From the IMG/VR virus record IMGVR_UViG_3300021425_002620: a stretch of DNA of 64,000 nucleotides; one strand, written 5' to 3'. The notes beneath the pieces were generated by a model, which did no database searches, was not told the origin of the DNA, and saw nothing but the letters and a program-made list of their open reading frames with translations. The stretch comes from a virus (lineage: Duplodnaviria; Caudoviricetes). A program made the translations under genes and the position numbers. Below are positions 13,028 to 23,655 of the stretch, in pieces; position 1 is the first letter of the stretch, and the number at the start of each line of letters is the position of its first letter.

Positions 13028-13192
13028 ATGTTTAAATCTAAATGGGATATATGGTTAGAAAACCAAAACGAAGCTACTAGAGTTTATCTAAAAAATCAAA
13101 TGAAAGAAGATGATAAACTTATTTGGCTCGGTTTTGGTTTAGGCATACCTGTAGGATTATTACTAGCAGTTATTATTTACTCTGCGCTATAA
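13028..13192 (+). CDS. small membrane protein, 54 aa
   Basis: Hand-translated MFKSKWDIWLENQ...LIWLGFGLGIPVGLLLAVIIYSAL. Confidence 0.55.
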   Translation: MFKSKWDIWLENQNEATRVYLKNQMKEDDKLIWLGFGLGIPVGLLLAVIIYSAL

Positions 13193-15212
13193 ACACACCG
13201 TTCCAATCTTTAGGTAACTTTTGCGTTTTCTGGAACTCACAGCGTTCAATCCACATTTTATAATAACCTTCCATTTTTCCATCAAAATGCCGCATAAGTT
13301 TATTACATTCTGTAATTGCTTGATCAAACTTTTGTGCTCTATAACAATCGTGCATACGTTCGTGTATTTCTTTGCTTTTTAGTTGTGCAGGTGTTCCAGC
13401 AATATCTAATACTGTATAAATGCTTAGTCCAACACTTTTACCTTTAACTTGTAGATCATCTACTTTTAAGTAGAAGAAGTCATTTTTAGTTTCTTTGTAG
13501 GTTGATTCTCCGACAAGGAGTAAGCATCCGTATTCTTTACACTTTGACTCAATTCTTGCTGCTGTGGAAACAGCGTCTCCCAAAACGTCATATGAGTGTC
13601 TTTTTGTTGAGCCCATTTCACCAAGATATCCAAGGCCTGTGTTGATACCGGCTCCCATTCCAACTGGCGGCCTTCCTTCTGCTGTAATTTTGTCATTAAA
13701 CTTCTCCACTGCTCGCAACATTTCTAGCCCACATTGTACTGCTGTTTTAGGATGATCTGGATCTTCTATAGGTGCATTATGTATATGCATACTTGCATCG
13801 CCTATGTATTTGATAATCATTCCGTCCATATCAAGTACAGGCTGTGTGATAGCATCCATATATCCATTCATGATTTTTGTTAGTCCTTTAACATCGTCGC
13901 CAAAACTTTCACCTAATGGTGTAAAGCCACGCAAGTCTGAGAATAAAATACTAACTTCTCGTTTCATACCTTCTTTAATAAGTGCAGGATTTTCTTGTAA
14001 TAGTCTTACTACAGTAGGTGATGCATAACCTGCAAACTGTTTCTTTATCGCTTGTTTTTCAAGGAACTCACGAACAAACTTAATTCCGTATACTTGTAAT
14101 GCAATAATAACCAAAGTAATGATAGGTGCTGTAACATCAATTAACGCCTTTTCTGTTGCAAACATATGCCATGAGTAAGGTAGTACTCCACTAATTAATC
14201 CTACTGTAACTACTAGTCCTACTAGCATCCATCGACTGAGTAAAATCAATAATAAACCACCTATAGCAAGCCCTACAAGCTCTGCTGTTGGCGCCCAGTC
14301 AGGTCGTTGTATATTTGTACCGTTAAACATTGTACCTATTACTGCGGCTTGGGTAGTACCTGCAAACTGTGCGCCTGTTGCTGTAGGAACAGGATTAGCA
14401 ATACCTGCTGCTGTTACATCTACAATAACAACTGCTCCGCCAAAATCACTAGGCAAGTCTGCTACACTTACACGTTTTGATTGTTGACTCCAGTCAATCC
14501 ACACACGCCCTTCTGAATCAGTAGGTATAGGACCAAACTGAGGTATACGCATTTTTTCTACGCCAAACTGATTTAACTTAATTTGAAAGTTTGGATCGCC
14601 TGCTATAACACGCAGTGTTTCTAATGCTAAACTAGGATATAATGTGCCGTCAACTACTGCTACAGTTGGCATACGTCTTACTACACCGTCAATTTCGGGC
14701 TCTGTACTTACAATACCTGCTCCAACACTGCTGTTTTCTAGTATAGGAATATTAGCAATAATGCCACCATATGGAAGTATACGATCTAAGTATTGAGGTT
14801 GTAGAATTGCTGCTCCAGGATTAATAGGCAAGTTAACAGTTTTATCGCTAGGACGACTTGCTAGTATTACAGGCAATGCCATCATAGTTTCTGCTAATTC
14901 TGTATCACCTCCAAAGCGATCTTTTTCAGGCATCATTACGTTCCATATAACTATACCTGCTCCTCTGTTATATAGATCTTTTATAATGTCTGAATATATG
15001 TTTCTAGGAAAAGGATACTGTCCGTAAATCTCTAATGCAGCATCGTCTATTTCTGCTACATAGATATTGTTTTCTACAGGTTCCTGATTTACAATAAGTT
15101 GATCAAAATAATTTAATTTAACACTTTGGAAAAAAGCAGGCGGTGTCATAAACAAATATATTAGAGCAGATAGTGTTAATAATGCCCACCACGGACTTAG
15201 TAATTTTTTCAT
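13173..15212 (-). CDS. CHASE2-domain class III adenylate/guanylate cyclase
   Basis: N-terminal TM, CHASE2 motifs (IDD, PFPR, DGVVRR), 3 TM, FSDLRGFT, KYIGD, GINTG, YDVLGDAVSTAARIE. Confidence 0.93.
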   Translation of the reverse strand: MKKLLSPWWALLTLSALIYLFMTPPAFFQSVKLNYFDQLIVNQEPVENNIYVAEIDDAALEIYGQYPFPRNIYSDIIKDLYNRGAGIVIWNVMMPEKDRFGGDTELAETMMALPVILASRPSDKTVNLPINPGAAILQPQYLDRILPYGGIIANIPILENSSVGAGIVSTEPEIDGVVRRMPTVAVVDGTLYPSLALETLRVIAGDPNFQIKLNQFGVEKMRIPQFGPIPTDSEGRVWIDWSQQSKRVSVADLPSDFGGAVVIVDVTAAGIANPVPTATGAQFAGTTQAAVIGTMFNGTNIQRPDWAPTAELVGLAIGGLLLILLSRWMLVGLVVTVGLISGVLPYSWHMFATEKALIDVTAPIITLVIIALQVYGIKFVREFLEKQAIKKQFAGYASPTVVRLLQENPALIKEGMKREVSILFSDLRGFTPLGESFGDDVKGLTKIMNGYMDAITQPVLDMDGMIIKYIGDASMHIHNAPIEDPDHPKTAVQCGLEMLRAVEKFNDKITAEGRPPVGMGAGINTGLGYLGEMGSTKRHSYDVLGDAVSTAARIESKCKEYGCLLLVGESTYKETKNDFFYLKVDDLQVKGKSVGLSIYTVLDIAGTPAQLKSKEIHERMHDCYRAQKFDQAITECNKLMRHFDGKMEGYYKMWIERCEFQKTQKLPKDWNGVFIAQSK

Positions 15213-15222
15213 TATAATATTC

Positions 15223-15327
15223 CTAAATAAACAGCATACCTATTAAAAATCCAATATTAAGTCCTAGTGAACAATACAATAAAAGATCTTTCCCATAACT
15301 GTAAGGTTGGTATTCTACTTCGTTCAT
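15223..15327 (-). CDS. small membrane protein, 34 aa
   Basis: Hand-translated MNEVEYQPYSYGKDLLLYCSLGLNIGFLIGMLFI; ATGA overlap upstream. Confidence 0.5.
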   Translation of the reverse strand: MNEVEYQPYSYGKDLLLYCSLGLNIGFLIGMLFI

Positions 15328-15623
15328 GCCCTTCTTCCCATTAGTTTTGCTTTTAACGCATTCATTTCTGCATCTCTGCTTGTTTTTTCAGATGTTGTAC
15401 CCAAGTCTTTTTGCGTAACATTTGTTTCCTTGGGTTGGCGTATATCTCTGGGTGTCGAATAACGATTAAGTCGTCTGTTCTGTTCTGCAATTCTTCTTCT
15501 GATATCTCGAACTTTGGCTTCAAGATCCACGGTACTATTTTGTCTGTCACTGTTTGCCCTTTCTGCGACTGTGTCTGTCGCGCCCTTATTTCCACAAATG
15601 ATTCTGCACAACCATTGCCTCAT
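15324..15623 (-). CDS. hypothetical basic protein
   Basis: 99 aa; TATAAATA 4 nt upstream. Confidence 0.65.
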   Translation of the reverse strand: MRQWLCRIICGNKGATDTVAERANSDRQNSTVDLEAKVRDIRRRIAEQNRRLNRYSTPRDIRQPKETNVTQKDLGTTSEKTSRDAEMNALKAKLMGRRA

Positions 15624-15630
15624 AACGTAT

Positions 15631-15735
15631 TTATATTACACCTAAGAAGGCTAGCCTAAGAATTGCTAGCCAAGCTGTTACTGATACTAACAGCCACAAG
15701 TAATGTCTATAAGTTGTGTCCTTATAGTGCCACAT
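15631..15735 (-). CDS. small membrane protein, 34 aa
   Basis: Hand-translated MWHYKDTTYRHYLWLLVSVTAWLAILRLAFLGVI; GAGGG SD-like. Confidence 0.45.
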   Translation of the reverse strand: MWHYKDTTYRHYLWLLVSVTAWLAILRLAFLGVI

Positions 15736-15761
15736 TTATACGCCCTCTAAACGTATTTATT

Positions 15762-16433
15762 TTAATTATTACGATTAACTGTGACTGAACAGCCACCTAA
15801 TGTTGCACAAGTACCTGTAATGCTAAATGAATCAGAAGCAGTAGTAACATTTTGAGTAAGAGTATAATTGTAGGCTCCGCCACCGTTTGTTAGATCTATT
15901 GCGGCACTTGCACTTTTGCTTCCACGCTGATCAACATCTACACTATGACCATCACCTGTAAGAACTATGTCAGCCCACTTTTGTCCGCCGTTGCCTCTTT
16001 GCAGTAAATCTACAGTATTACCGTCGCCTTGTATTTCTACAAATCCATCGTGTCCTGCTTTGCCCATTTGTATGTGTTCAACTGTATTGCTGTCACCATT
16101 TACAATGTTTGCTAGATGATGCGGTGCTCCGCCTCCGCCACCTCTATTTTCATCTGTTTGATAACTGGCTACTGTGTTTCCATCTCCAGTTACAGTCCAG
16201 TATGCTTCGTGGCCGCCTGTTTCGTCTTGATCTATTGTACCATCTTTGTGCATGCCTTGACGTATTGTAATATTATTGTTTGGTCCAGTAGAATTCAAAC
16301 TAACGTAGTTGTCTACACTACGTTGTTGTATTTCTAAGTCGAGATTATCTCCACTTTGTGTTACATAAATTTCGTTAGCACTACTTTTGAATGATATTAA
16401 TGTTGTTGTTACCAACACCAAGAAGGTAGTCAT
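15762..16433 (-). CDS. curlin-like repeat secreted protein
   Basis: Signal peptide, then NEIYVTQSGD and repeated GDGNTV...Q(R)G units; start 16433 or 16445. Confidence 0.75.
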   Translation of the reverse strand: MTTFLVLVTTTLISFKSSANEIYVTQSGDNLDLEIQQRSVDNYVSLNSTGPNNNITIRQGMHKDGTIDQDETGGHEAYWTVTGDGNTVASYQTDENRGGGGGAPHHLANIVNGDSNTVEHIQMGKAGHDGFVEIQGDGNTVDLLQRGNGGQKWADIVLTGDGHSVDVDQRGSKSASAAIDLTNGGGAYNYTLTQNVTTASDSFSITGTCATLGGCSVTVNRNN

Positions 16434-17514
16434 AAACTGCTTCATCGCCTTGCTCCACGTTAAGTTTGTATCCATAATTTCCGTTCAAATATAAATCTAT
16501 TGTATTTTCTACACTAGAATCTTGTCTTTTAATATGCCACATAGGATCTTCGTAATCTAAGAAAAATCCTGTTTCTTCGTCATAACCTAATTGACGCTGT
16601 CTAAAAAATTCTTGGTTTTGAGCTTCTAGTTCGTCTTTAAAACTATTTAGTAATGCTTGATTAAGAGCATCTATCATATCAACAAGTATTTCTCTAAGAT
16701 AATAATCTGCTCCTTTATCTAATTCTGTTACCCAAATATCTTTAATGCTATCAGCTAGTGCATCTTGATCAAGATCATCAAATTTTAAAAAATCAAAATC
16801 TAATACACTTACACTAGCTTCTTGTTGCAGCTCTTTTTCTATTGCTGCATCAATAGGATCTTTACGCCTTACAATAAGCATACCAGTAATTTGTGGCTCT
16901 GTTAGCTCAACAATAATAGGAGGGCTAGGAGACTTCCAAAGACTTTCTACACGAGTCATTTGGAATGGTTGATTCATTATAACCATTCCTGCATCATTCT
17001 CAACACTAATTTCACCTGTCACGCACTCTAACTCTACGCCGTTTTCTGTTTGACAACTAGGTAATAGTGTTACATAACTTTCGCCTATTTCATTTACAAT
17101 CATAGCAAAGTCTGTACCACGAACTGATATAGTTGCAGTTGGTGTTCTTAGTCTTACATTTTGTCTTGAGTTTTTTGCAATTTGTCCACTTGCATAACGA
17201 ACAGCACCTAGTGTTGCTCGCATATCTAACACGCCCTTGCCCGAAGCTGGATCATATATAAATTCATCAATAACAACTCTACTATGATCAACTACATCAA
17301 GTCGAGTGTCATCAACAAAATCAATACGCATTTTACCTGCATTAGTAACGGCTTCGTCCAATTGTTGGACGCTAGTGCCTACTTCGTTACCTGCATTGTT
17401 TCTGTCGCGTAAGATTTGTCCATCCCCGTCTAGTTCAGTAACGGTACCAATTGAGGACTGTGCCGCAGATGCGACAGAGAAAAATAAACTAAAGAGTAAG
17501 ACTAGCACTCTCAT
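16381..17514 (-). CDS. FecR-domain secreted/periplasmic protein
   Basis: Signal peptide; IDFVDDTRLDV, VRLRTPTATISVRGTDF. Confidence 0.85.
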   Translation of the reverse strand: MRVLVLLFSLFFSVASAAQSSIGTVTELDGDGQILRDRNNAGNEVGTSVQQLDEAVTNAGKMRIDFVDDTRLDVVDHSRVVIDEFIYDPASGKGVLDMRATLGAVRYASGQIAKNSRQNVRLRTPTATISVRGTDFAMIVNEIGESYVTLLPSCQTENGVELECVTGEISVENDAGMVIMNQPFQMTRVESLWKSPSPPIIVELTEPQITGMLIVRRKDPIDAAIEKELQQEASVSVLDFDFLKFDDLDQDALADSIKDIWVTELDKGADYYLREILVDMIDALNQALLNSFKDELEAQNQEFFRQRQLGYDEETGFFLDYEDPMWHIKRQDSSVENTIDLYLNGNYGYKLNVEQGDEAVYDYLLGVGNNNINIIQK

Positions 17515-17521
17515 ACTAGTC

Positions 17522-18277
17522 TTAATCTATTTGTGTGATGTCAATAGTACTACCGTTTGTTGTAGCATCAATATCAATAACGTTATCGTATACTCCGCCT
17601 TGCGAAATAGTGAATACATTGCCGCCGCCTGTTAAATCTAGATTGATAAAGTGGCCGTTTGCATCTCCATCGCCGTCTACGTCGATATCAATAATGTTAC
17701 CTGCATTAGATGCACTCAAACTTACGTCTGTAGCACTAGTTGCGCCTGTTGTGTGTAAACTTGCACTATTATTAACAACAACTGTGATATCTGAATCAAC
17801 ACCATCAACATCTGCATCAACTACGTTGTCGTCACCTGTTACTGTAAACGCAACTGTTGACGAACCTGCGTCTGCATTTTCGCCGATGTAGAATTTAAAT
17901 GTGTTATCGTCACCTGTAGTTGTAATATCTAGTTGTACACTTTCACAATTTCCTGCACCTGCTGTTCCTAAACTGTCACACTTCATGTCTACGACATTAG
18001 TATTGCCAGTGAAACTCCAAGTACCTGTGTATGAATCACCATTGATGATTGCTGCAATATCATTAGTATCACCTGTTTGGGTAATAGAAAATACCATGCT
18101 GTCACCTGTTAAAGTCACACCCGTGGTGCTGTCACCAAACTGGTTATTCTGCCCATCTTGAGTAATGTCTAAATCTAAGCTATCACCAACTTGCGTAATG
18201 TAAATATCATTCGCTAGGGCTGGTGTCGCTAGTAGCACTGTCATCAACGCCGATAATGTCAACGTCTTCAACTTCAT
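17522..18277 (-). CDS. curlin-like repeat secreted protein
   Basis: Signal peptide ALA; NDIYITQVGD, TQDGQNN, TGDDN, SQGG repeats. Confidence 0.75.
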   Translation of the reverse strand: MKLKTLTLSALMTVLLATPALANDIYITQVGDSLDLDITQDGQNNQFGDSTTGVTLTGDSMVFSITQTGDTNDIAAIINGDSYTGTWSFTGNTNVVDMKCDSLGTAGAGNCESVQLDITTTGDDNTFKFYIGENADAGSSTVAFTVTGDDNVVDADVDGVDSDITVVVNNSASLHTTGATSATDVSLSASNAGNIIDIDVDGDGDANGHFINLDLTGGGNVFTISQGGVYDNVIDIDATTNGSTIDITQID

Positions 18278-19079
18278 AACTTCCCTCCTGTTGGAACTTC
18301 CAAAGTCCCTTTCTTTCGCCTTCGTAAACTAGTTCAACTACCGCTTGCTCGATAGCAGCCCTCGTAGCATAATTTACGGGCTCATTAACTGAAAAACCTG
18401 TTTCAGTCTCGAGTAACTCAGTTCCCATGTCCAAGAACTTAAATACATCCGCTCCGGACTGGTGGCTTGCAATCGTTTTTTCGGTTGCAATACTTAAAAG
18501 TACTTTCCCTGTACTTACACTTACAATTCTTAAAGAAATTGTAACTGTATCGATGCGATATTGCGTATTTGCGCCAACACCTAACCATCTTGCGCCGACA
18601 CCGCCTACTGCGACATTACTATCGTAGCCAATTATCCCCCCTTCTAATAAAAGTCCTGCAAATAGCAAGGGTTTTAATTGTGGTGCATCTGGGCCTTCGT
18701 ATTGATCTCTAGTCTGTCTTATTAGTTGTCTTTCTTTGATAAGATTGTCCATCCCTACTCGCTCAACTACGTCAAACCATCCTTCGTCGCCTACATCTTG
18801 CAGAGCCTTAATTACCCAAACTTCTCCACCTTGCGTGACTGCTGAGCTTAATTTTGCTACACCGTCACTTGGTTTACGTTGTCCTGTTTTATCACTAAAC
18901 TGATAAACAGCAATAGTAATTTTAGGTCCGTCAATTTTTGGTACATCTTCAAGACGTTGCTGAATTGGAGATGGTTGTACTATCGGTGATGTCTCTGCTT
19001 CCTGTAGTTTTAATAAACTCGGAGTCATTGCACAACCGCCTAGTAGAGCTAAAGATAGTACGAGAAACAGATGCTTCAT
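18207..19079 (-). CDS. csgG: curli secretion channel lipoprotein CsgG
   Basis: Lipobox LGGC; AVYQFSDKTGQRKP, SSAVTQG, VVERVGMDNLIKERQLIRQTR, EGGIIGYDSN. Confidence 0.93.
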   Translation of the reverse strand: MKHLFLVLSLALLGGCAMTPSLLKLQEAETSPIVQPSPIQQRLEDVPKIDGPKITIAVYQFSDKTGQRKPSDGVAKLSSAVTQGGEVWVIKALQDVGDEGWFDVVERVGMDNLIKERQLIRQTRDQYEGPDAPQLKPLLFAGLLLEGGIIGYDSNVAVGGVGARWLGVGANTQYRIDTVTISLRIVSVSTGKVLLSIATEKTIASHQSGADVFKFLDMGTELLETETGFSVNEPVNYATRAAIEQAVVELVYEGERKGLWKFQQEGSYEVEDVDIIGVDDSATSDTSPSE

Positions 19080-19531
19080 TAGAAACTAAAGTCTCCTTCT
19101 GCCGGAATAGTAATCTCTGTAACTGTGCCATCTTCTTGGACAATAGTTATAGTGATCATTCCGTCTGCCTTTACCCAAGTAATTGTTGACCCTTCAATCT
19201 CTGCTGTGCCTGTGTTAGAACATGTATCTGTGCAATCAGCAAACATAGCGTCAACCATCTGTTTGGATAATTGGGCATATATTCTTGATTCAACATTCCG
19301 AATAAACTTATTCAAAATGCTATTTTCTAGCTCACGTTCAATTCTTCTAGCCTCTGCTTCTGCCTTGTCTTTAATATCTTGCTTGCGATTGAACGATAAT
19401 TGTTCTGTACTTAAAACGTGTGCAGAATAACCTTGTCCACTAAAACTTGGGTTTTTAAATCCCCAAACTAATTCGCTTGCCTGAGCTACAGAGCTCATAA
19501 AGAACAACGTGAGTACGGCATATTTAATCAT
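19079..19531 (-). CDS. csgF: curli assembly protein CsgF
   Basis: Signal peptide; ELVWGFKNPSFSG, ESRIYAQLSKQ, DGTVTEITIP; adjacent to csgG. Confidence 0.85.
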   Translation of the reverse strand: MIKYAVLTLFFMSSVAQASELVWGFKNPSFSGQGYSAHVLSTEQLSFNRKQDIKDKAEAEARRIERELENSILNKFIRNVESRIYAQLSKQMVDAMFADCTDTCSNTGTAEIEGSTITWVKADGMITITIVQEDGTVTEITIPAEGDFSF

Positions 19532-19579
19532 AATGGATTCCCTCTTTCATATATTTATTAAAACGTTGCCCTAATCACG

Positions 19580-19624
19580 TAAATACACTTGTATTTATCT
19601 GATGGGTGTTAAAATTCTAACACC
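19580..19624. promoter_or_regulatory. back-to-back late promoters and palindrome
   Basis: TAAATAC-ACTT-GTATTTA (19580-19597); GGTGTTA-N6-TAACACC (19605-19624). Confidence 0.5.
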
Positions 19625-19650
19625 ATATTACTTCGATAGGAACAAGACAA

Positions 19651-19899
19651 ATGAAAGATAAAATGACTGAAGACGAATTACGAGCGGCTGAGCAAGATGC
19701 CCTTTGGAGAATATGTGAAGAACTAAGTGCCTATCATGATACAAGGCCTGTGGATTTGTCTCAAGAAGTTAGCGAATTAGAACAACAAGAGATTGAACGT
19801 GCATTAAGAGCGTGTGATGATAATCAAACAAAGGCAGCTAAATTATTAAAACTTAATCGCACTACACTTCTTGCTAAAATGAAAAAGTACAATATTTAA
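19651..19899 (+). CDS. Fis-type HTH DNA-binding protein
   Basis: EIERALRACDDNQTKAAKLLKLNRTTLLAKMKKY matches HTH_8 pattern. Confidence 0.85.
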   Translation: MKDKMTEDELRAAEQDALWRICEELSAYHDTRPVDLSQEVSELEQQEIERALRACDDNQTKAAKLLKLNRTTLLAKMKKYNI

Positions 19900-21560
19900 G
19901 AAGCAATATATCCAGGTGTTGGCGTTTGCTGATCGTCGTTCCAGTTAAAGCCGCCGCCTGTTATAATTTTATCTCCGCCCATTTGCTGTACTAAATCATC
20001 AGCGTCTTTAAAGATAACATAGTTTAGATTGTCTGTTCTAAGCAACATAACAGTAGTAATACCATCTGCTAAATGATAACTTGAATACGCAATTTTAGAA
20101 TATGCTATATTCATTTTCTTCATATCAACTGTACCGTCATCGTTAATAGCATCAGCAATAAGTTCGCCCGGATTAAATGGTTTATGATGTTTGTTACCTG
20201 CTTGTTCTTTGCTTAACTTATCATAGTTTTGTACTAGTGCTTTGATAGTAGATTCAAAGAGTTCATATGTTTCTCTCTTGTTAGCATAAGGTTGTAAGAC
20301 TTCAATATTAAGTGCTTTGAAACCTGAATTGTTCCAGTTGTATTTTGAACCTTCTTTTGCTTTCTTTTTGATAACGTTATATCTATTACCGTTATACTTT
20401 CTTGCAGGTACTAGTTTTTCTGAACCATCTTTTTGTGTAACAGAGACTGTTGCGTCTTCTGGTGCATTCTGCATTATTTGATTAATACCTTTTGCCCACG
20501 TAGACCAACCTGTTGTTGCTTTTGCAATAGCCTTACTATTAAATCGTCCACCAGTCTTTGCACTTGCTTTAATTTCAACTTCTTCGTCACCTATCTTAAG
20601 ATCACCCTTTTTGCCTTTTTCAGCAGGGTTACCCATCATTGACAGTGCCATTTCGCCTGGACCGATTGCACCTGATGTTGTACCTGGAGAATAACTAAAA
20701 ATGTTTTCTTCAACAAATACATCAAACACTTTTTGGTATTTAGGATTTACATGATTCTTAATGTTACCCTCTGATCTACTAATAACATCAAGCATGTTAA
20801 TAACATCGCCTTTTACACAGGCACCTAAAAAATCTTTTATTTCTTCACTTGTTACATCGCTGCCTTCTTGTATGTCAAGTATTTTACCAAACAGTGCTTG
20901 CTTTAGTGTCTTGGTAAACTTTTCTGCATTAACAGCCATCTTTTTATATGAAGCTCTGTCTGTTGATGTCATTGCAGAAGTGTCTGCATCTGCTGAATAG
21001 CCTTGTACCTTGTTTCCTAATGTGACAAGAATACCAGTTACTTCTTTTACAAAATTTATAGCTTCATCACGCTCTGATCTTGCTTGATCACGTTGCGCAC
21101 GAACTACTTCAAATTCTTTTACTAATTGATCTAATGGTTTATTGATGTCTGCAATAACTTTTTCTTTTTGTGCATCATCAATAGGTAATTTAGCAACTGC
21201 CGAAACTGCATCTTTAATTTCTTTAATTGCTTTTTCAGCTCTTGCATCAGCTGCTTCATAATCCTTAATTGAATATAACTTCTTTTGTACTTGTGGATTT
21301 GCTTTAGCTTCTTGTTGTTGTGGTTGTGGAGCAGACTTTGCTTGATTTGTAACTCTGTTAACAAATGCTGTAACATCTTTAGCCATTTTTTCTAGTTTAG
21401 AAACTAGAGTCATTTTAGCATCTACTTTTTCAGTAGGTATTTGTGATATAGAAGAACTAATGGCTTCTAAATCGTGTAACGTGTGTTGTGTTTCTAAACC
21501 AGCATTAGCTGCTTTATTTTCTGCAAGTTGAATTGATACTTTGATGTCACTAAAACGCAT
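19896..21560 (-). CDS. coiled-coil protein with possible C-terminal PD-(D/E)XK-like domain
   Basis: GPGEMAL...GDLKIGDEEVEIKAS; TATAAATA at 21586-21593. Confidence 0.6.
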   Translation of the reverse strand: MRFSDIKVSIQLAENKAANAGLETQHTLHDLEAISSSISQIPTEKVDAKMTLVSKLEKMAKDVTAFVNRVTNQAKSAPQPQQQEAKANPQVQKKLYSIKDYEAADARAEKAIKEIKDAVSAVAKLPIDDAQKEKVIADINKPLDQLVKEFEVVRAQRDQARSERDEAINFVKEVTGILVTLGNKVQGYSADADTSAMTSTDRASYKKMAVNAEKFTKTLKQALFGKILDIQEGSDVTSEEIKDFLGACVKGDVINMLDVISRSEGNIKNHVNPKYQKVFDVFVEENIFSYSPGTTSGAIGPGEMALSMMGNPAEKGKKGDLKIGDEEVEIKASAKTGGRFNSKAIAKATTGWSTWAKGINQIMQNAPEDATVSVTQKDGSEKLVPARKYNGNRYNVIKKKAKEGSKYNWNNSGFKALNIEVLQPYANKRETYELFESTIKALVQNYDKLSKEQAGNKHHKPFNPGELIADAINDDGTVDMKKMNIAYSKIAYSSYHLADGITTVMLLRTDNLNYVIFKDADDLVQQMGGDKIITGGGFNWNDDQQTPTPGYIAS

Positions 21561-21588: not shown

Positions 21589-22287
21589 TTATACTATTTT
21601 AGGAAATAACATATCCGTGCAGAATTTATCTACATCTGCTTCTGGTAATCCTAAACTTTTCATTGTACGTGGAGTGTGCGGATTTTGTTGTTGATTATGA
21701 CAGTAATAGTTTTGTGCGGCAGCAACTAATGGTACTTCACCTGAACCATCGCTTTGACCTATTTCATCAAAATATGCACGAAGATTGTTTAATGCTAGTT
21801 CTACGATAGCAACTGCTTCTTCTTCAGTGTTTACATTACCTGCGGCAACCATTTTATCAGTAAAAATATTTTTAGCCCACTGCGGAAGCTCACGTTGTTT
21901 CTTAGGAATAAAATCTGCTACTGCTTCATAATAGCCTTGTATCATATCATGATCTTCATTGGTAGTAGGAGAAAAATCATGGAATGCTCCTGTCATTTTA
22001 TTCTTACCTGCAATCACATCAAAGCCATATATTGGTCCGTCATTATTTAAATTAGGAAAGACACATACATGCATCATCCAAAGGCCTTTGCTATCTCTAG
22101 CATCCACAACGTCAATGTGTGCCCTGCGAACACTACTGTTAGCCCACACACGGTTAATCCAACCGTTATCAGGTTGGTTAAAAGCATCAAGTCCTTCTTC
22201 ATTATATTCTGTTGCTTTTTCGTTGAATATATTTATAATTTCGTCTTGACATTCAATTAGTTTAGTCCAAATAATACTCAAGAGCAA
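21589..22287 (-). CDS. pcyX: ferredoxin-dependent bilin reductase, PcyA/PcyX family
   Basis: RRAHID, MHVCVFP, PIYGFDVIAG, FHDFSP, RELPQWA, QQQNPHT; coupled to heme oxygenase. Confidence 0.85.
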   Translation of the reverse strand: MLLSIIWTKLIECQDEIINIFNEKATEYNEEGLDAFNQPDNGWINRVWANSSVRRAHIDVVDARDSKGLWMMHVCVFPNLNNDGPIYGFDVIAGKNKMTGAFHDFSPTTNEDHDMIQGYYEAVADFIPKKQRELPQWAKNIFTDKMVAAGNVNTEEEAVAIVELALNNLRAYFDEIGQSDGSGEVPLVAAAQNYYCHNQQQNPHTPRTMKSLGLPEADVDKFCTDMLFPKIV

Positions 22288-22831
22288 CCTCCATCATTTC
22301 TTGAAATAATTCTGTAGCAGATGTAAACACCCATTTGGCTTCTTCTGCTTGTCCGTCGTGTGTATATGTTCTTAAATTTTCTTTAAGATCTTTTACATCA
22401 CCTTTAAACTGATACATGCGGCCTTCACCAGGTATCTTCTTTTTAATCATTTGCCCGCCACTAAGGTCACCCATATGTAGTACATATACGTGTGCCATAA
22501 GCAGGTCTTTGTTGTCTTTAATTTCTTCAATTCTATCTAAGTACTTCCAAGTACTAGGTAGTGTTATTGGTGTCCTATTAGCAATGTCCCAAAGCTCTTG
22601 CCAATCATCTTCTATCTTTTTCATTTGTTTGATGTCAAATAATTTTAAATCATCTGCCCAAACACCTAACTGATCTAATGCTTCTTCGAGTGCTTCGTAC
22701 TTCTTCCATTGATTATATAAGTATGTTGCATAAAAATCAGGATTGATTTTACCACTCATTAATACTTTGACAAACTCTTGTCTTTCGGCGTTTTGGTGAT
22801 GCTCCCAAGTTAGCTCTTTTAAATTGCTCAA
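22262..22831 (-). CDS. hemO: heme oxygenase
   Basis: LKELTWEHHQNAE; AHVYVLHMGDLSGGQMI. Confidence 0.92.
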   Translation of the reverse strand: MSNLKELTWEHHQNAERQEFVKVLMSGKINPDFYATYLYNQWKKYEALEEALDQLGVWADDLKLFDIKQMKKIEDDWQELWDIANRTPITLPSTWKYLDRIEEIKDNKDLLMAHVYVLHMGDLSGGQMIKKKIPGEGRMYQFKGDVKDLKENLRTYTHDGQAEEAKWVFTSATELFQEMMEVALEYYLD

Positions 22832-23146
22832 TTAGTCCTCCTCTTCCATTTTGATTTGCAATGGAAAGCCTTTTTGTCTACTTGCCTGAACAGCTTCGTT
22901 GGTCTTTGTTTCAGCAATTTCAAAACTATACACGCCTGCTATTCCACTTCCTTCTGTATGTATCGTCATTGTAAGTTGTTCTGCAGAAATATGGCTGTGT
23001 TTGAATACAACAGTAAGTAATTCTATTACCCATTCTACCGGAGTATGATTATCATTTAAAAAAATAACTTTGTAGCGTTTTGGAACTTCAACAGTCTTTT
23101 CTATTTTTTCATCAATTTGAATATCTTCTACAATATCTGTACTCAT
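22832..23146 (-). CDS. clpS: Clp protease adaptor ClpS
   Basis: YKVIFLNDNHTPVEWV...IHTEGSGIAGVYSFEIAETK...FPLQIKME. Confidence 0.93.
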   Translation of the reverse strand: MSTDIVEDIQIDEKIEKTVEVPKRYKVIFLNDNHTPVEWVIELLTVVFKHSHISAEQLTMTIHTEGSGIAGVYSFEIAETKTNEAVQASRQKGFPLQIKMEEED

Positions 23147-23162
23147 TTATTTTTCCTTAAAA

Positions 23163-23190
23163 TGTTAGGGGAGACAATGCTCCCCTAACA
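23163..23190 (-). terminator. intrinsic terminator after hsp20
   Basis: 11-bp inverted repeat TGTTAGGGGAG/CTCCCCTAACA followed by T4. Confidence 0.75.
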
Positions 23191-23196
23191 ACTCTA

Positions 23197-23655
23197 TTAC
23201 TCGACTTCGCCGTTAATTACAGGTGAACCAACATTGATGTTGATTTTCTTAGGTTGTAGTTCTTCAGGTACTTCACGAACTAAAGTAATGTTTAACATAC
23301 CTAGTTCAAGATTTGCCTGCTCTACTTCCATATGATCTGCAAGTGTAAATTCTCTACGGAAATTACGTCCTGCAATACCTTTGTGCAAGTAATTTACATC
23401 ATCGTCACCCTTTGGTGCTAAACCTTCTACACGAAGAATATTACCCTCTTTAGTAATATCCAACTCGTCCATAGCAAAGCCTGCAACGGCAAGTGAGATT
23501 ACATACTCATCATCAGATATCTGTACAATATTATACGGAGGATATCCTGTTGATTGTGAATTAGAAAATTGTCTTTCTAATTCGTTAAACATTCTATCAA
23601 AGCCAATTGTGGCCCTGTGAAAATGTGGTAGGTCTAAAGTTGTTAGTCTTGTCAT
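23197..23655 (-). CDS. small heat shock protein Hsp20/IbpA family
   Basis: GFDRMF, YPPYNI, LAVAGF, YLHKGIAGRNFRREFTLA, GMLNITL. Confidence 0.95.
   Translation of the reverse strand: MTRLTTLDLPHFHRATIGFDRMFNELERQFSNSQSTGYPPYNIVQISDDEYVISLAVAGFAMDELDITKEGNILRVEGLAPKGDDDVNYLHKGIAGRNFRREFTLADHMEVEQANLELGMLNITLVREVPEELQPKKININVGSPVINGEVE

Follow-up and report, generated by a model that had tools for sequence, protein, structure and literature searches.

Phage-borne curli modules and the present locus

Curli-type secretion genes were reported in pelagimyophages in 2020, as csgF and csgG (PMC7029224). Methylophilales phage Melnitz was described in 2022, together with the idea of a lysis pore (PMC9004378). 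In the same year, a full set of csgF-csgG-CsgA/B-FecR-CsgA/B-adenylate cyclase, with a short gene labelled 'HK', was reported from podo- and myo-pelagiphages, along with its global abundance and its metatranscriptome matches; some of the podophage modules have FecR without the cyclase (PMC9599517). Here we describe a locus of this kind at positions 13173-19899 of IMG/VR record IMGVR_UViG_3300021425_002620, a stretch of 64,000 nucleotides (nt) of Caudoviricetes DNA that we call the window.

The locus is a further member of the published, very common viral type VIII secretion system (T8SS, curli) module of pelagiphages and methylophages. The sequence-only reading of the window had placed csgF and csgG in marine myophages, and the literature bears this out (PMC7029224, PMC9004378, PMC9599517). 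The papers on the published modules make no mention of a CHASE2 domain, a helix-turn-helix (HTH) gene or an operator. New here are the reassignment of the FecR protein, the pattern of co-variation among the module parts, a CHASE2-FecR operon in SAR11, a missing receiver for cyclic AMP (cAMP), and a Fis-type regulator with its candidate operator.

We propose, and give the proposal even chances, that the window locus, as a member of the viral T8SS module that marine phages of T4-like and podo-like type carry, consists of three coupled parts, which are an export device, an envelope sensor and an HTH regulator. The features of the window locus, with protein lengths in amino acids (aa), are the following.

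19651-19899, plus strand: Fis-type HTH (HTH_8) protein, 82 aa (PF02954, E 8.5e-12)
19605-19624, no strand: palindrome GGTGTTA-N6-TAACACC, probable (predicted) operator of the HTH protein (strict-pattern match)
19552-19599, minus strand: two T4-late-promoter-like boxes, GATAAATA at 19599-19592 and AATAAATA at 19559-19552 (read from the sequence)
19079-19531, minus strand: csgF, 150 aa, signal peptide (PF10614, E 6e-17; hydropathy)
18207-19079, minus strand: csgG, 290 aa, outer-membrane lipoprotein channel (PF03783, E 2e-51; lipobox LLGGC)
17522-18277, minus strand: curlin-repeat protein 1 (curlin 1), 251 aa, signal peptide, acidic, rich in T, D, G and N (Curlin_rpt matches of orthologues)
16381-17514, minus strand: secreted FecR-fold protein, 377 aa, signal peptide (PF04773, E 1e-6)
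15762-16475, minus strand: curlin-repeat protein 2 (curlin 2), 237 aa, signal peptide, likely start MKQF at 16445 (Curlin_rpt, E 2.5e-8)
15628-15635, minus strand: perfect TATAAATA box between curlin 2 and the small reading frame and cyclase (sequence match)
15324-15623, minus strand: small basic protein, 99 aa, in a variable slot between curlin 2 and the cyclase (homologue clusters)
13173-15212, minus strand: CHASE2 + Guanylate_cyc protein, 679 aa, receptor adenylate cyclase (PF05226, E 3e-31; PF00211, E 4e-17)

Seven open reading frames (ORFs) thus run head to tail on the minus strand over 13173-19531, with the HTH_8 gene divergent on the plus strand. Pfam matches and homology confirm the parts, their order and their strand as first read from the letters. 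That reading had also stated that the window has no csgE or csgD. This holds for the module ORFs, which the check covered, and neither gene is among them. CsgE (PF10627) was likewise not found in the complete genomes of Melnitz and HTVC008M or in three large related contigs.

Conservation of the module

The window comes from a marine T4-like myophage and encodes a class Ia ribonucleotide reductase among other phage families. Among isolates, it comes nearest to Methylophilales phage Melnitz and Pelagibacter phage HTVC008M, with ~67-70% nucleotide identity over parts of the region.

An identical order of six genes is found in Melnitz, HTVC008M, a close relative and 54 of 80 IMG/VR loci, and most of the remaining IMG/VR loci have part of the module. 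The order is kept even in distant marine and freshwater phage contigs, where FecR identity is 32-34%. Gene linkage is far beyond chance. In the window, csgF and csgG are adjacent and the curlin-FecR-curlin-cyclase order lies 3' of csgG, as in pelagiphage-type modules.

Module homologues are very abundant in public metagenome protein collections. As for expression, csgG and curlin 1 have near-identical fragments in short RNA-library contigs from three studies, which establishes presence in the libraries and not transcription. These fragments are weak evidence of expression, with DNA carry-over possible. Among the records that contain the DNA of the stretch, none is registered as RNA.

Export parts

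CsgG aligns over its full length to E. coli CsgG structures (E 2.5e-52), and the constriction residues Y51/N55/F56 of E. coli are S/K/L here. CsgF keeps the N-terminal FxFxNPxFxG-type motif that plugs the CsgG barrel (WGFKNPSFSG vs FQFRNPNFGG, in an alignment to E. coli CsgF 6L7A). By hydropathy, a cleavable signal peptide is the only hydrophobic segment in CsgF, in each of the two curlin-like proteins and in the FecR protein.

Curlin 1 has no Pfam match of its own, but it has repeated I-x-Q-x-G-x-x-N units, cross-matches curlin 2 and is present in every relative compared, with Curlin_rpt matched in 4 of 11 orthologues. Its AlphaFold2 (AF2) model is all-beta, with a predicted local distance difference test score (pLDDT) of 75. 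A Foldseek search of this model against the PDB and Swiss-Prot models gave nothing significant, only weak beta-helix rows, and solved curli subunits gave no significant structural match. Curlin 2 is the most variable member of the module, with homologues of 195-460 aa and a mean p-distance of 0.66.

Based on these parts, the CsgG channel with its CsgF cap would carry both curlin-repeat proteins, which are Sec-dependent, out to the infected cell's surface, where they may form fibres.

Two overlaps were seen among the genes of this block. The csgG 3' end and the curlin 1 start overlap by ~70 nt, both in the window (18207-18277) and in the close relative L003 (L003:9247-9314). Between the FecR gene and curlin 2 the overlap is ~50-95 nt, according to which start is chosen.

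FecR-fold protein

PF04773 is the only family above the Pfam cut-off in the FecR protein. Its AF2 model (pLDDT 86.6) has a beta domain at residues 23-200, a helical linker at 210-305 and a six-strand C-terminal beta domain at 317-376. The first beta domain resembles the C-terminal cell-surface signalling domain of PupR (6OVK; Z 15.1, root-mean-square deviation 2.6, 135 residues) and a Bacteroidetes anti-sigma factor (4M0N; Z 14.2).

The published label for the phage protein is that of an iron-dependent regulator (PMC9599517, PMC7029224). Pfam, hydropathy and the AF2 model reveal neither a cytoplasmic anti-sigma segment nor a membrane segment past the signal peptide, and the module genes include no FecI or other ECF sigma factor and no FecA or other TonB-dependent transducer. 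A role as an iron anti-sigma factor was rejected, given the signal peptide, the beta domain that begins at residue 23 and the lack of an anti-sigma or transmembrane part. The sequence-only reading had FecR relay outer-membrane signals. In the FecIRA sense this is not borne out, since a relay of that type is inapplicable to a protein with no anti-sigma and no membrane segment, and this counts against the sensing scheme of that reading.

The C-terminal tail of the FecR family has a motif, …I-x-V-x-Q-x-G…G-x-N-x-I-x-I-x-Q, that resembles the last curlin repeat. In hhalign, the tail matches this repeat with P 0.0016 and a score of 22.7, against 7.6 +/- 1.4 in 150 column shuffles. Other curlin repeats gave P 0.004-0.005, and control families 0.06-0.87. 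Curlin_rpt is not among the Pfam families listed for 82 FecR homologues and the ESM Atlas gave no usable match for the C-terminal part, so the likeness stands on this weak profile match. We take the curlin-like tail as a weak lead.

Bacterial FecR-CHASE2 pairs and SAR11

FecR-domain proteins encoded with CHASE2 receptors have been described in bacteria. A LysM-FecR protein forms an operon with a CHASE2 histidine kinase in Burkholderia and Pseudomonas (PMC5192318), and in Campylobacterota a CHASE2 cyclase is clustered with a FecR-domain outer-membrane protein (PMC9239204). In S. meliloti, the CHASE2 cyclases CyaD1/D2/K depend on NsrA, an outer-membrane protein, for the sensing of free ribosomal protein uL2 (PMC7529298, PMC13001267).

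A scan with the FecR alignment, using one genome per prokaryote species, returned 80 loci. Nine of them match FecR over its full length, and eight of these nine have other module genes too. One full-length locus, L016, is phage DNA binned with bacteria, as seen from its gp44-type clamp loader and DNA ligase. The other 71 loci are bacterial, mostly alphaproteobacterial, and their match is confined to the FecR N-domain. With profiles built in this work, a CHASE2 protein was found within 10 kb in 20 of these 71. Twelve of the 20 have a cyclase output and eight are Pelagibacteraceae single-cell genomes. CsgG and CsgF were found in none of the 71.

In the window, only curlin 2 and the small ORF lie between the FecR and CHASE2 genes. 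By homology and gene pairing, we read the phage FecR protein as the counterpart of the bacterial FecR-domain accessory proteins encoded beside CHASE2 receptors. The bacterial gene pairing and the literature together argue that the phage cassette is best understood as export genes of the curli type joined with a CHASE2/FecR envelope sensor of the bacterial type.

The SAR11 loci have their own arrangement. At L041:3469-12898, an operon encodes PBP2, RodA, a CHASE2-SpoIIE protein (PP2C phosphatase), and proteins of 455 aa, 191 aa (FecR-domain) and 345 aa. The 455-aa protein has a weak DUF2860 match, and a GAF-SpoIIE gene is divergent from the operon. Seven further Pelagibacteraceae loci are arranged likewise (L042-L044, L054, L059, L062 and L080), the SpoIIE/PP2C output being shown for L041. 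The operon appears to be a native CHASE2/FecR envelope sensor adjoining cell-elongation genes. SAR11 genomes are noted for having very few regulators.

The phage CHASE2 domain is ~26-32% identical to all bacterial CHASE2 domains found, those of SAR11 included. A recent capture of CHASE2 from the host is unsupported, with the phage domain not specially close to the SAR11 one.

CHASE2 cyclase and its nucleotide

The cyclase has an N-terminal transmembrane segment, a periplasmic CHASE2 domain, a transmembrane bundle at 306-382, a class III catalytic domain at 417-593 and a helical tail of ~80 aa. Aligned to Cya2 (2W01) and CyaB (3R5G), it keeps the metal-binding D426/D472, the adenine-specifying K468/D542, R553 and K592. 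The transition-state Asn is replaced by Ser549 in one phage clade, which comprises the window, Melnitz and others. There, Ser549 goes with a change from Ser/Thr to Asp at 542; HTVC008M and all bacterial relatives have Ser/Thr plus Asn.

The phage cyclases (the window and the homologues in L001-L018) split by Asp542+Ser549 vs Ser/Thr+Asn, and this split does not coincide with the groups formed by CHASE2-domain similarity. The weak co-variation of the CHASE2 and catalytic domains (r 0.34) suggests domain swapping.

In terms of function, a CHASE2 receptor whose ATP-type class III cyclase domain keeps its catalytic residues, the Asn excepted, would work with the secreted FecR-fold protein. Homology and gene pairing are seen in the sequences, and the two proteins would bind each other. 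A predicted complex of the periplasmic CHASE2 domain (28-308) with the FecR N-domain (20-215) scored 0.01, which weighs neither way.

As for a receiver of the nucleotide, Melnitz, HTVC008M and three large related contigs gave no match to a CAP-type cNMP_binding domain. No CAP-type cAMP receptor was found in five Pelagibacteraceae genomes of 1.1-1.2 Mb, and no class III cyclases either. With a host of the Pelagibacteraceae type, the nucleotide would have no canonical receiver. The sequence-only reading had FecR and CHASE2 sensing together to make cAMP. Its sensing pair receives indirect support from the pairing in 20 of the 71 bacterial loci, the co-variation of CHASE2 with the FecR N-domain and the catalytic residues that are kept, while for the cAMP route no CAP-type receptor was found in the related phages and SAR11 genomes examined.

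Co-variation of the module parts

Pairwise distances of the module parts were compared over 65 loci, with partial Mantel tests controlling for csgG and csgF. The csgF, csgG and curlin 1 proteins and all three parts of FecR co-vary with r 0.7-0.89. Weaker values were found for curlin 2 (r 0.27-0.52) and the CHASE2 domain (r 0.27-0.47). The catalytic domain of the cyclase has r 0.64 with csgG, against 0.34 with its own sensor domain.

In the partial tests, the best correlate of CHASE2 is the FecR N-domain (0.27), against 0.115 for its own catalytic domain and 0.08 for curlin 2. The FecR tail correlates with curlin 1 (0.31) and not significantly with curlin 2 (0.03). Shared ancestry and linkage confound mirror-tree correlations of this kind, whose p-values are optimistic.

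The pattern is suggestive of a FecR protein that belongs to the export block and also tracks the fast-changing CHASE2 sensor domain. FecR would then be the hinge of the module: it co-evolves with the block of csgF, csgG and curlin 1, and no other module part tracks CHASE2 as well as the FecR N-domain does. From this hinge position, it probably reports the state of curlin export, or an outer-membrane cue, to the cyclase. The tight co-variation of csgF, csgG, curlin 1 and FecR argues for one export machine with its cargo, and against a lysis pore.

Fis-type regulator, operator and promoter boxes

Of 93 phage loci that bear the module, 23 have a homologue of the HTH_8 protein, in every case encoded on the opposite strand. 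The gene is either divergent upstream of csgF or located between csgG and curlin 1, and it was not found in Melnitz or HTVC008M. It is not a chance neighbour but a recurrent seventh member of the module. The short 'HK' before csgF in podophages (PMC9599517) may be this HTH gene, which is a guess.

A palindrome, (G/C)TGTWA-N6-TWACAC, is the one element kept in otherwise divergent promoter regions. Its core, TGTWA-N6-TWACA, is found at most 170 nt upstream of the HTH start in 19 of the 23 HTH loci. Upstream of the HTH gene the core occurs at 4.86 per kb, whereas the remaining 1.25 Mb has 0.033 per kb (binomial p 4e-33), an enrichment of ~150-fold at this promoter. The strict palindrome has one match in the 64-kb window (19605-19624), where 0.19 are expected. 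A fixed-spacer pattern was used, as a looser one (one mismatch per arm, variable spacer) occurs ~1 per kb and is too permissive.

The HTH protein is probably a dedicated regulator of the module, and the palindrome probably its operator. This is drawn from the association of gene and site; the protein would bind the palindrome in the divergent promoter region and control the operon, in a direction that may be either activation or repression.

A second exact core (TGTAAAAATATTTACA) was seen after curlin 2, just upstream of the cyclase, in some loci, among them L114:10136 and L145:5959. In these two, the HTH gene sits between csgG and curlin 1. This second copy hints that the regulator may also control the cyclase separately.

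Among 9 intergenic regions compared, 5 have a late-promoter-like box after the palindrome (that of the window and those of 4 of 8 relatives). The box TATAAATA is not enriched in the window, with 7 found and 6.2 expected, and the two late-promoter-like boxes at 19552-19599 are therefore a weak call.

Small reading frame and neighbouring genes

The 99-aa ORF has 17 homologue clusters of equal length with 33-97% identity, and it occupies the same slot in L106. It is absent from Melnitz, HTVC008M and L003. The ORF is real and confined to a subclade, in a slot that is variable. In L003, the slot between curlin 2 and the cyclase has other small ORFs, of 160, 72 and 72 aa. The arginine-rich 99-aa ORF has a stop that overlaps a further short reading frame. 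The spacer at 15213-15761 has three late-promoter-like boxes, including the perfect TATAAATA at 15635-15628.

Upstream of the module, the region 21589-23655 encodes heme oxygenase, a ferredoxin-dependent bilin reductase, ClpS and HSP20, and the same genes are found in the relatives L003 and L006. These shared chaperone and bilin neighbours indicate that in this lineage the module travels with that block, and not with genes for lysis or the baseplate. The modules of Melnitz and HTVC008M adjoin baseplate genes. Between the bilin genes and the HTH gene, a 554-aa protein is encoded at 19896-21560 on the minus strand. It has no Pfam or PHROG match, and it is found in the same place in the close relatives L003, L090 and L134, with 65-84% identity. 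An Rfam search of the region gave nothing credible.

Weighing of the alternative explanations

Several observations weigh against a module of export device, envelope sensor and regulator. On the export side, these are the replaced constriction of CsgG and the curlin 1 model, which has no significant match to solved curli subunits. On the sensor side, the transition-state Asn is lost in the clade of the window, and with no CAP-type cNMP-binding domain found in the related phage and Pelagibacteraceae genomes examined, the cAMP route has no visible receiver. The occurrence of FecR without the cyclase in some podophages (PMC9599517) implies that FecR may serve the secretion system alone, and the confounding of the mirror-tree correlations weakens the hinge argument.

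A complete curli system, as the published work has it (PMC9599517, PMC7029224), would serve the aggregation of infected cells ('sibling capture') or superinfection resistance, with FecR responding to iron and the cyclase giving a CsgD-like input. CsgG, CsgF and two signal-peptide curlin-repeat proteins are indeed present and conserved, and the csgG and curlin 1 fragments in RNA libraries (weakly) and the metatranscriptome matches (PMC9599517) agree with its use. Yet the FecR protein is without the anti-sigma and membrane segments, no FecI or FecA is in the module, and the bacterial relatives of FecR pair with CHASE2 receptors and not with iron uptake genes. There is also no CAP-type cAMP receptor in the SAR11 genomes examined, and Melnitz cultures were without clumping (PMC9004378). 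We consider this account unlikely, while keeping it in view.

Podophages with FecR and no cyclase (PMC9599517), together with the absence of CsgE from the relatives examined, fit another account, in which FecR is a pure secretion accessory, a CsgE stand-in that gates or feeds CsgG, and the CHASE2 cyclase is an independent passenger with an unrelated cue. The r values of FecR with csgF, csgG and curlin 1 (0.73-0.89, against 0.47 with CHASE2) and the weak resemblance of the phage-specific FecR tail to the last curlin repeat also agree with it. We find it rather improbable, as in most loci the cyclase has stayed in position behind curlin 2, the FecR N-domain correlates with CHASE2 better than the cyclase's own catalytic domain does, and the bacterial FecR homologues pair with CHASE2 proteins and never with CsgG. 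The lysis-timing idea (PMC9004378) has CsgG, alone or together with CsgF, serve as a gated pore of the outer membrane or as an analogue of a pinholin, and takes the remaining genes as accessory or unrelated. It could draw on the S/K/L constriction and, again, on the absence of CsgE. But an outer-membrane pore cannot depolarise the inner membrane, the curlins, FecR and cyclase are co-inherited with the pore in at least 54 of 80 loci, and the window module neighbours chaperone, bilin and redoxin genes rather than lysis genes; we regard such a pore as very doubtful. Finally, that the curlin-like proteins are virion fibres and the module structural seems scarcely credible. Their beta-solenoid-like models weakly resemble tailspike-type beta-helices and the module adjoins baseplate genes in Melnitz and HTVC008M, but Sec signal peptides are found on both curlins, CsgF and FecR, whereas tailed-phage virions assemble in the cytoplasm, and the window module is not beside structural genes.

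A more speculative arrangement, to which we give only a slim chance, is that the module senses across the envelope under its own regulation and does not serve adhesion. Its antenna at the outer membrane would be the CsgG/CsgF pore with a curlin fibre, and FecR, tethered there by its curlin-like tail, would pass a surface cue to the CHASE2 cyclase. The nucleotide would reach a non-CAP receptor that times late events, and the Fis-like protein with its operator would close the loop. The cue could be the contents of lysed neighbours, by analogy with uL2 and the CHASE2 cyclases of S. meliloti (PMC7529298), or a superinfecting phage. A candidate receptor for the nucleotide is the GAF-PP2C protein beside the SAR11 CHASE2-FecR operon.

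Ocean phages have few accessory modules as widespread as this cassette. The assignment of FecR as an accessory of the CHASE2 sensor, the SAR11 operon and the candidate regulator with its operator give defined protein pairs, a DNA site and an enzymatic output to work with. If the module does read the state of the cell surface or its surroundings, this would bear on the infection dynamics of the SAR11 and OM43-type hosts that dominate the surface ocean.

Comparison with known systems

The modules of Melnitz and HTVC008M match that of the window in gene content and order (csgF, csgG, curlin, FecR, curlin, adenylate cyclase), with protein identities to the window module of 40-56% for Melnitz and 33-58% for HTVC008M. 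The window phage is of a different lineage from those with published modules, with ~70% nucleotide identity over only 31% of the region, and the genomic neighbourhood of its module differs. Unlike the two isolates, it has the divergent Fis-type HTH gene, and also the small basic ORF before the cyclase.

Compared with the curli of E. coli and Salmonella (csgBAC-csgDEFG), the phage shares the CsgG lipoprotein channel, a CsgF with the barrel-binding N-terminal motif and secreted curlin-repeat proteins. The phage module genes include no CsgE, CsgC or CsgD, and the constriction is S/K/L and not Y/N/F. The phage curlins are longer and acidic, and their genes are interspersed with those of a FecR-fold protein and a receptor cyclase.

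With Fis and the detached HTH_8 domains of NtrC-type activators, the regulator has in common the HTH_8 domain, the small size and a palindromic AT-rich site. The phage protein stands alone, with no receiver or AAA+ domain, and its site, TGTWA-N6-TWACA, is specific to the module.

The FecR/PupR anti-sigma regulators share the periplasmic fold with the phage protein, which differs from them in having no cytoplasmic anti-sigma domain and no transmembrane helix, and in a module with no gene for an ECF sigma factor or TonB-dependent transducer. Lastly, in the bacterial CHASE2 and FecR-domain pairs, as in the phage, the gene of a secreted FecR-domain protein accompanies that of a CHASE2 transmembrane receptor. 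The C-terminal parts differ, being LysM or a long unannotated region in the bacterial FecR proteins, whereas the phage protein has a helical linker and a small beta domain of its own and is linked to CsgG and CsgF.

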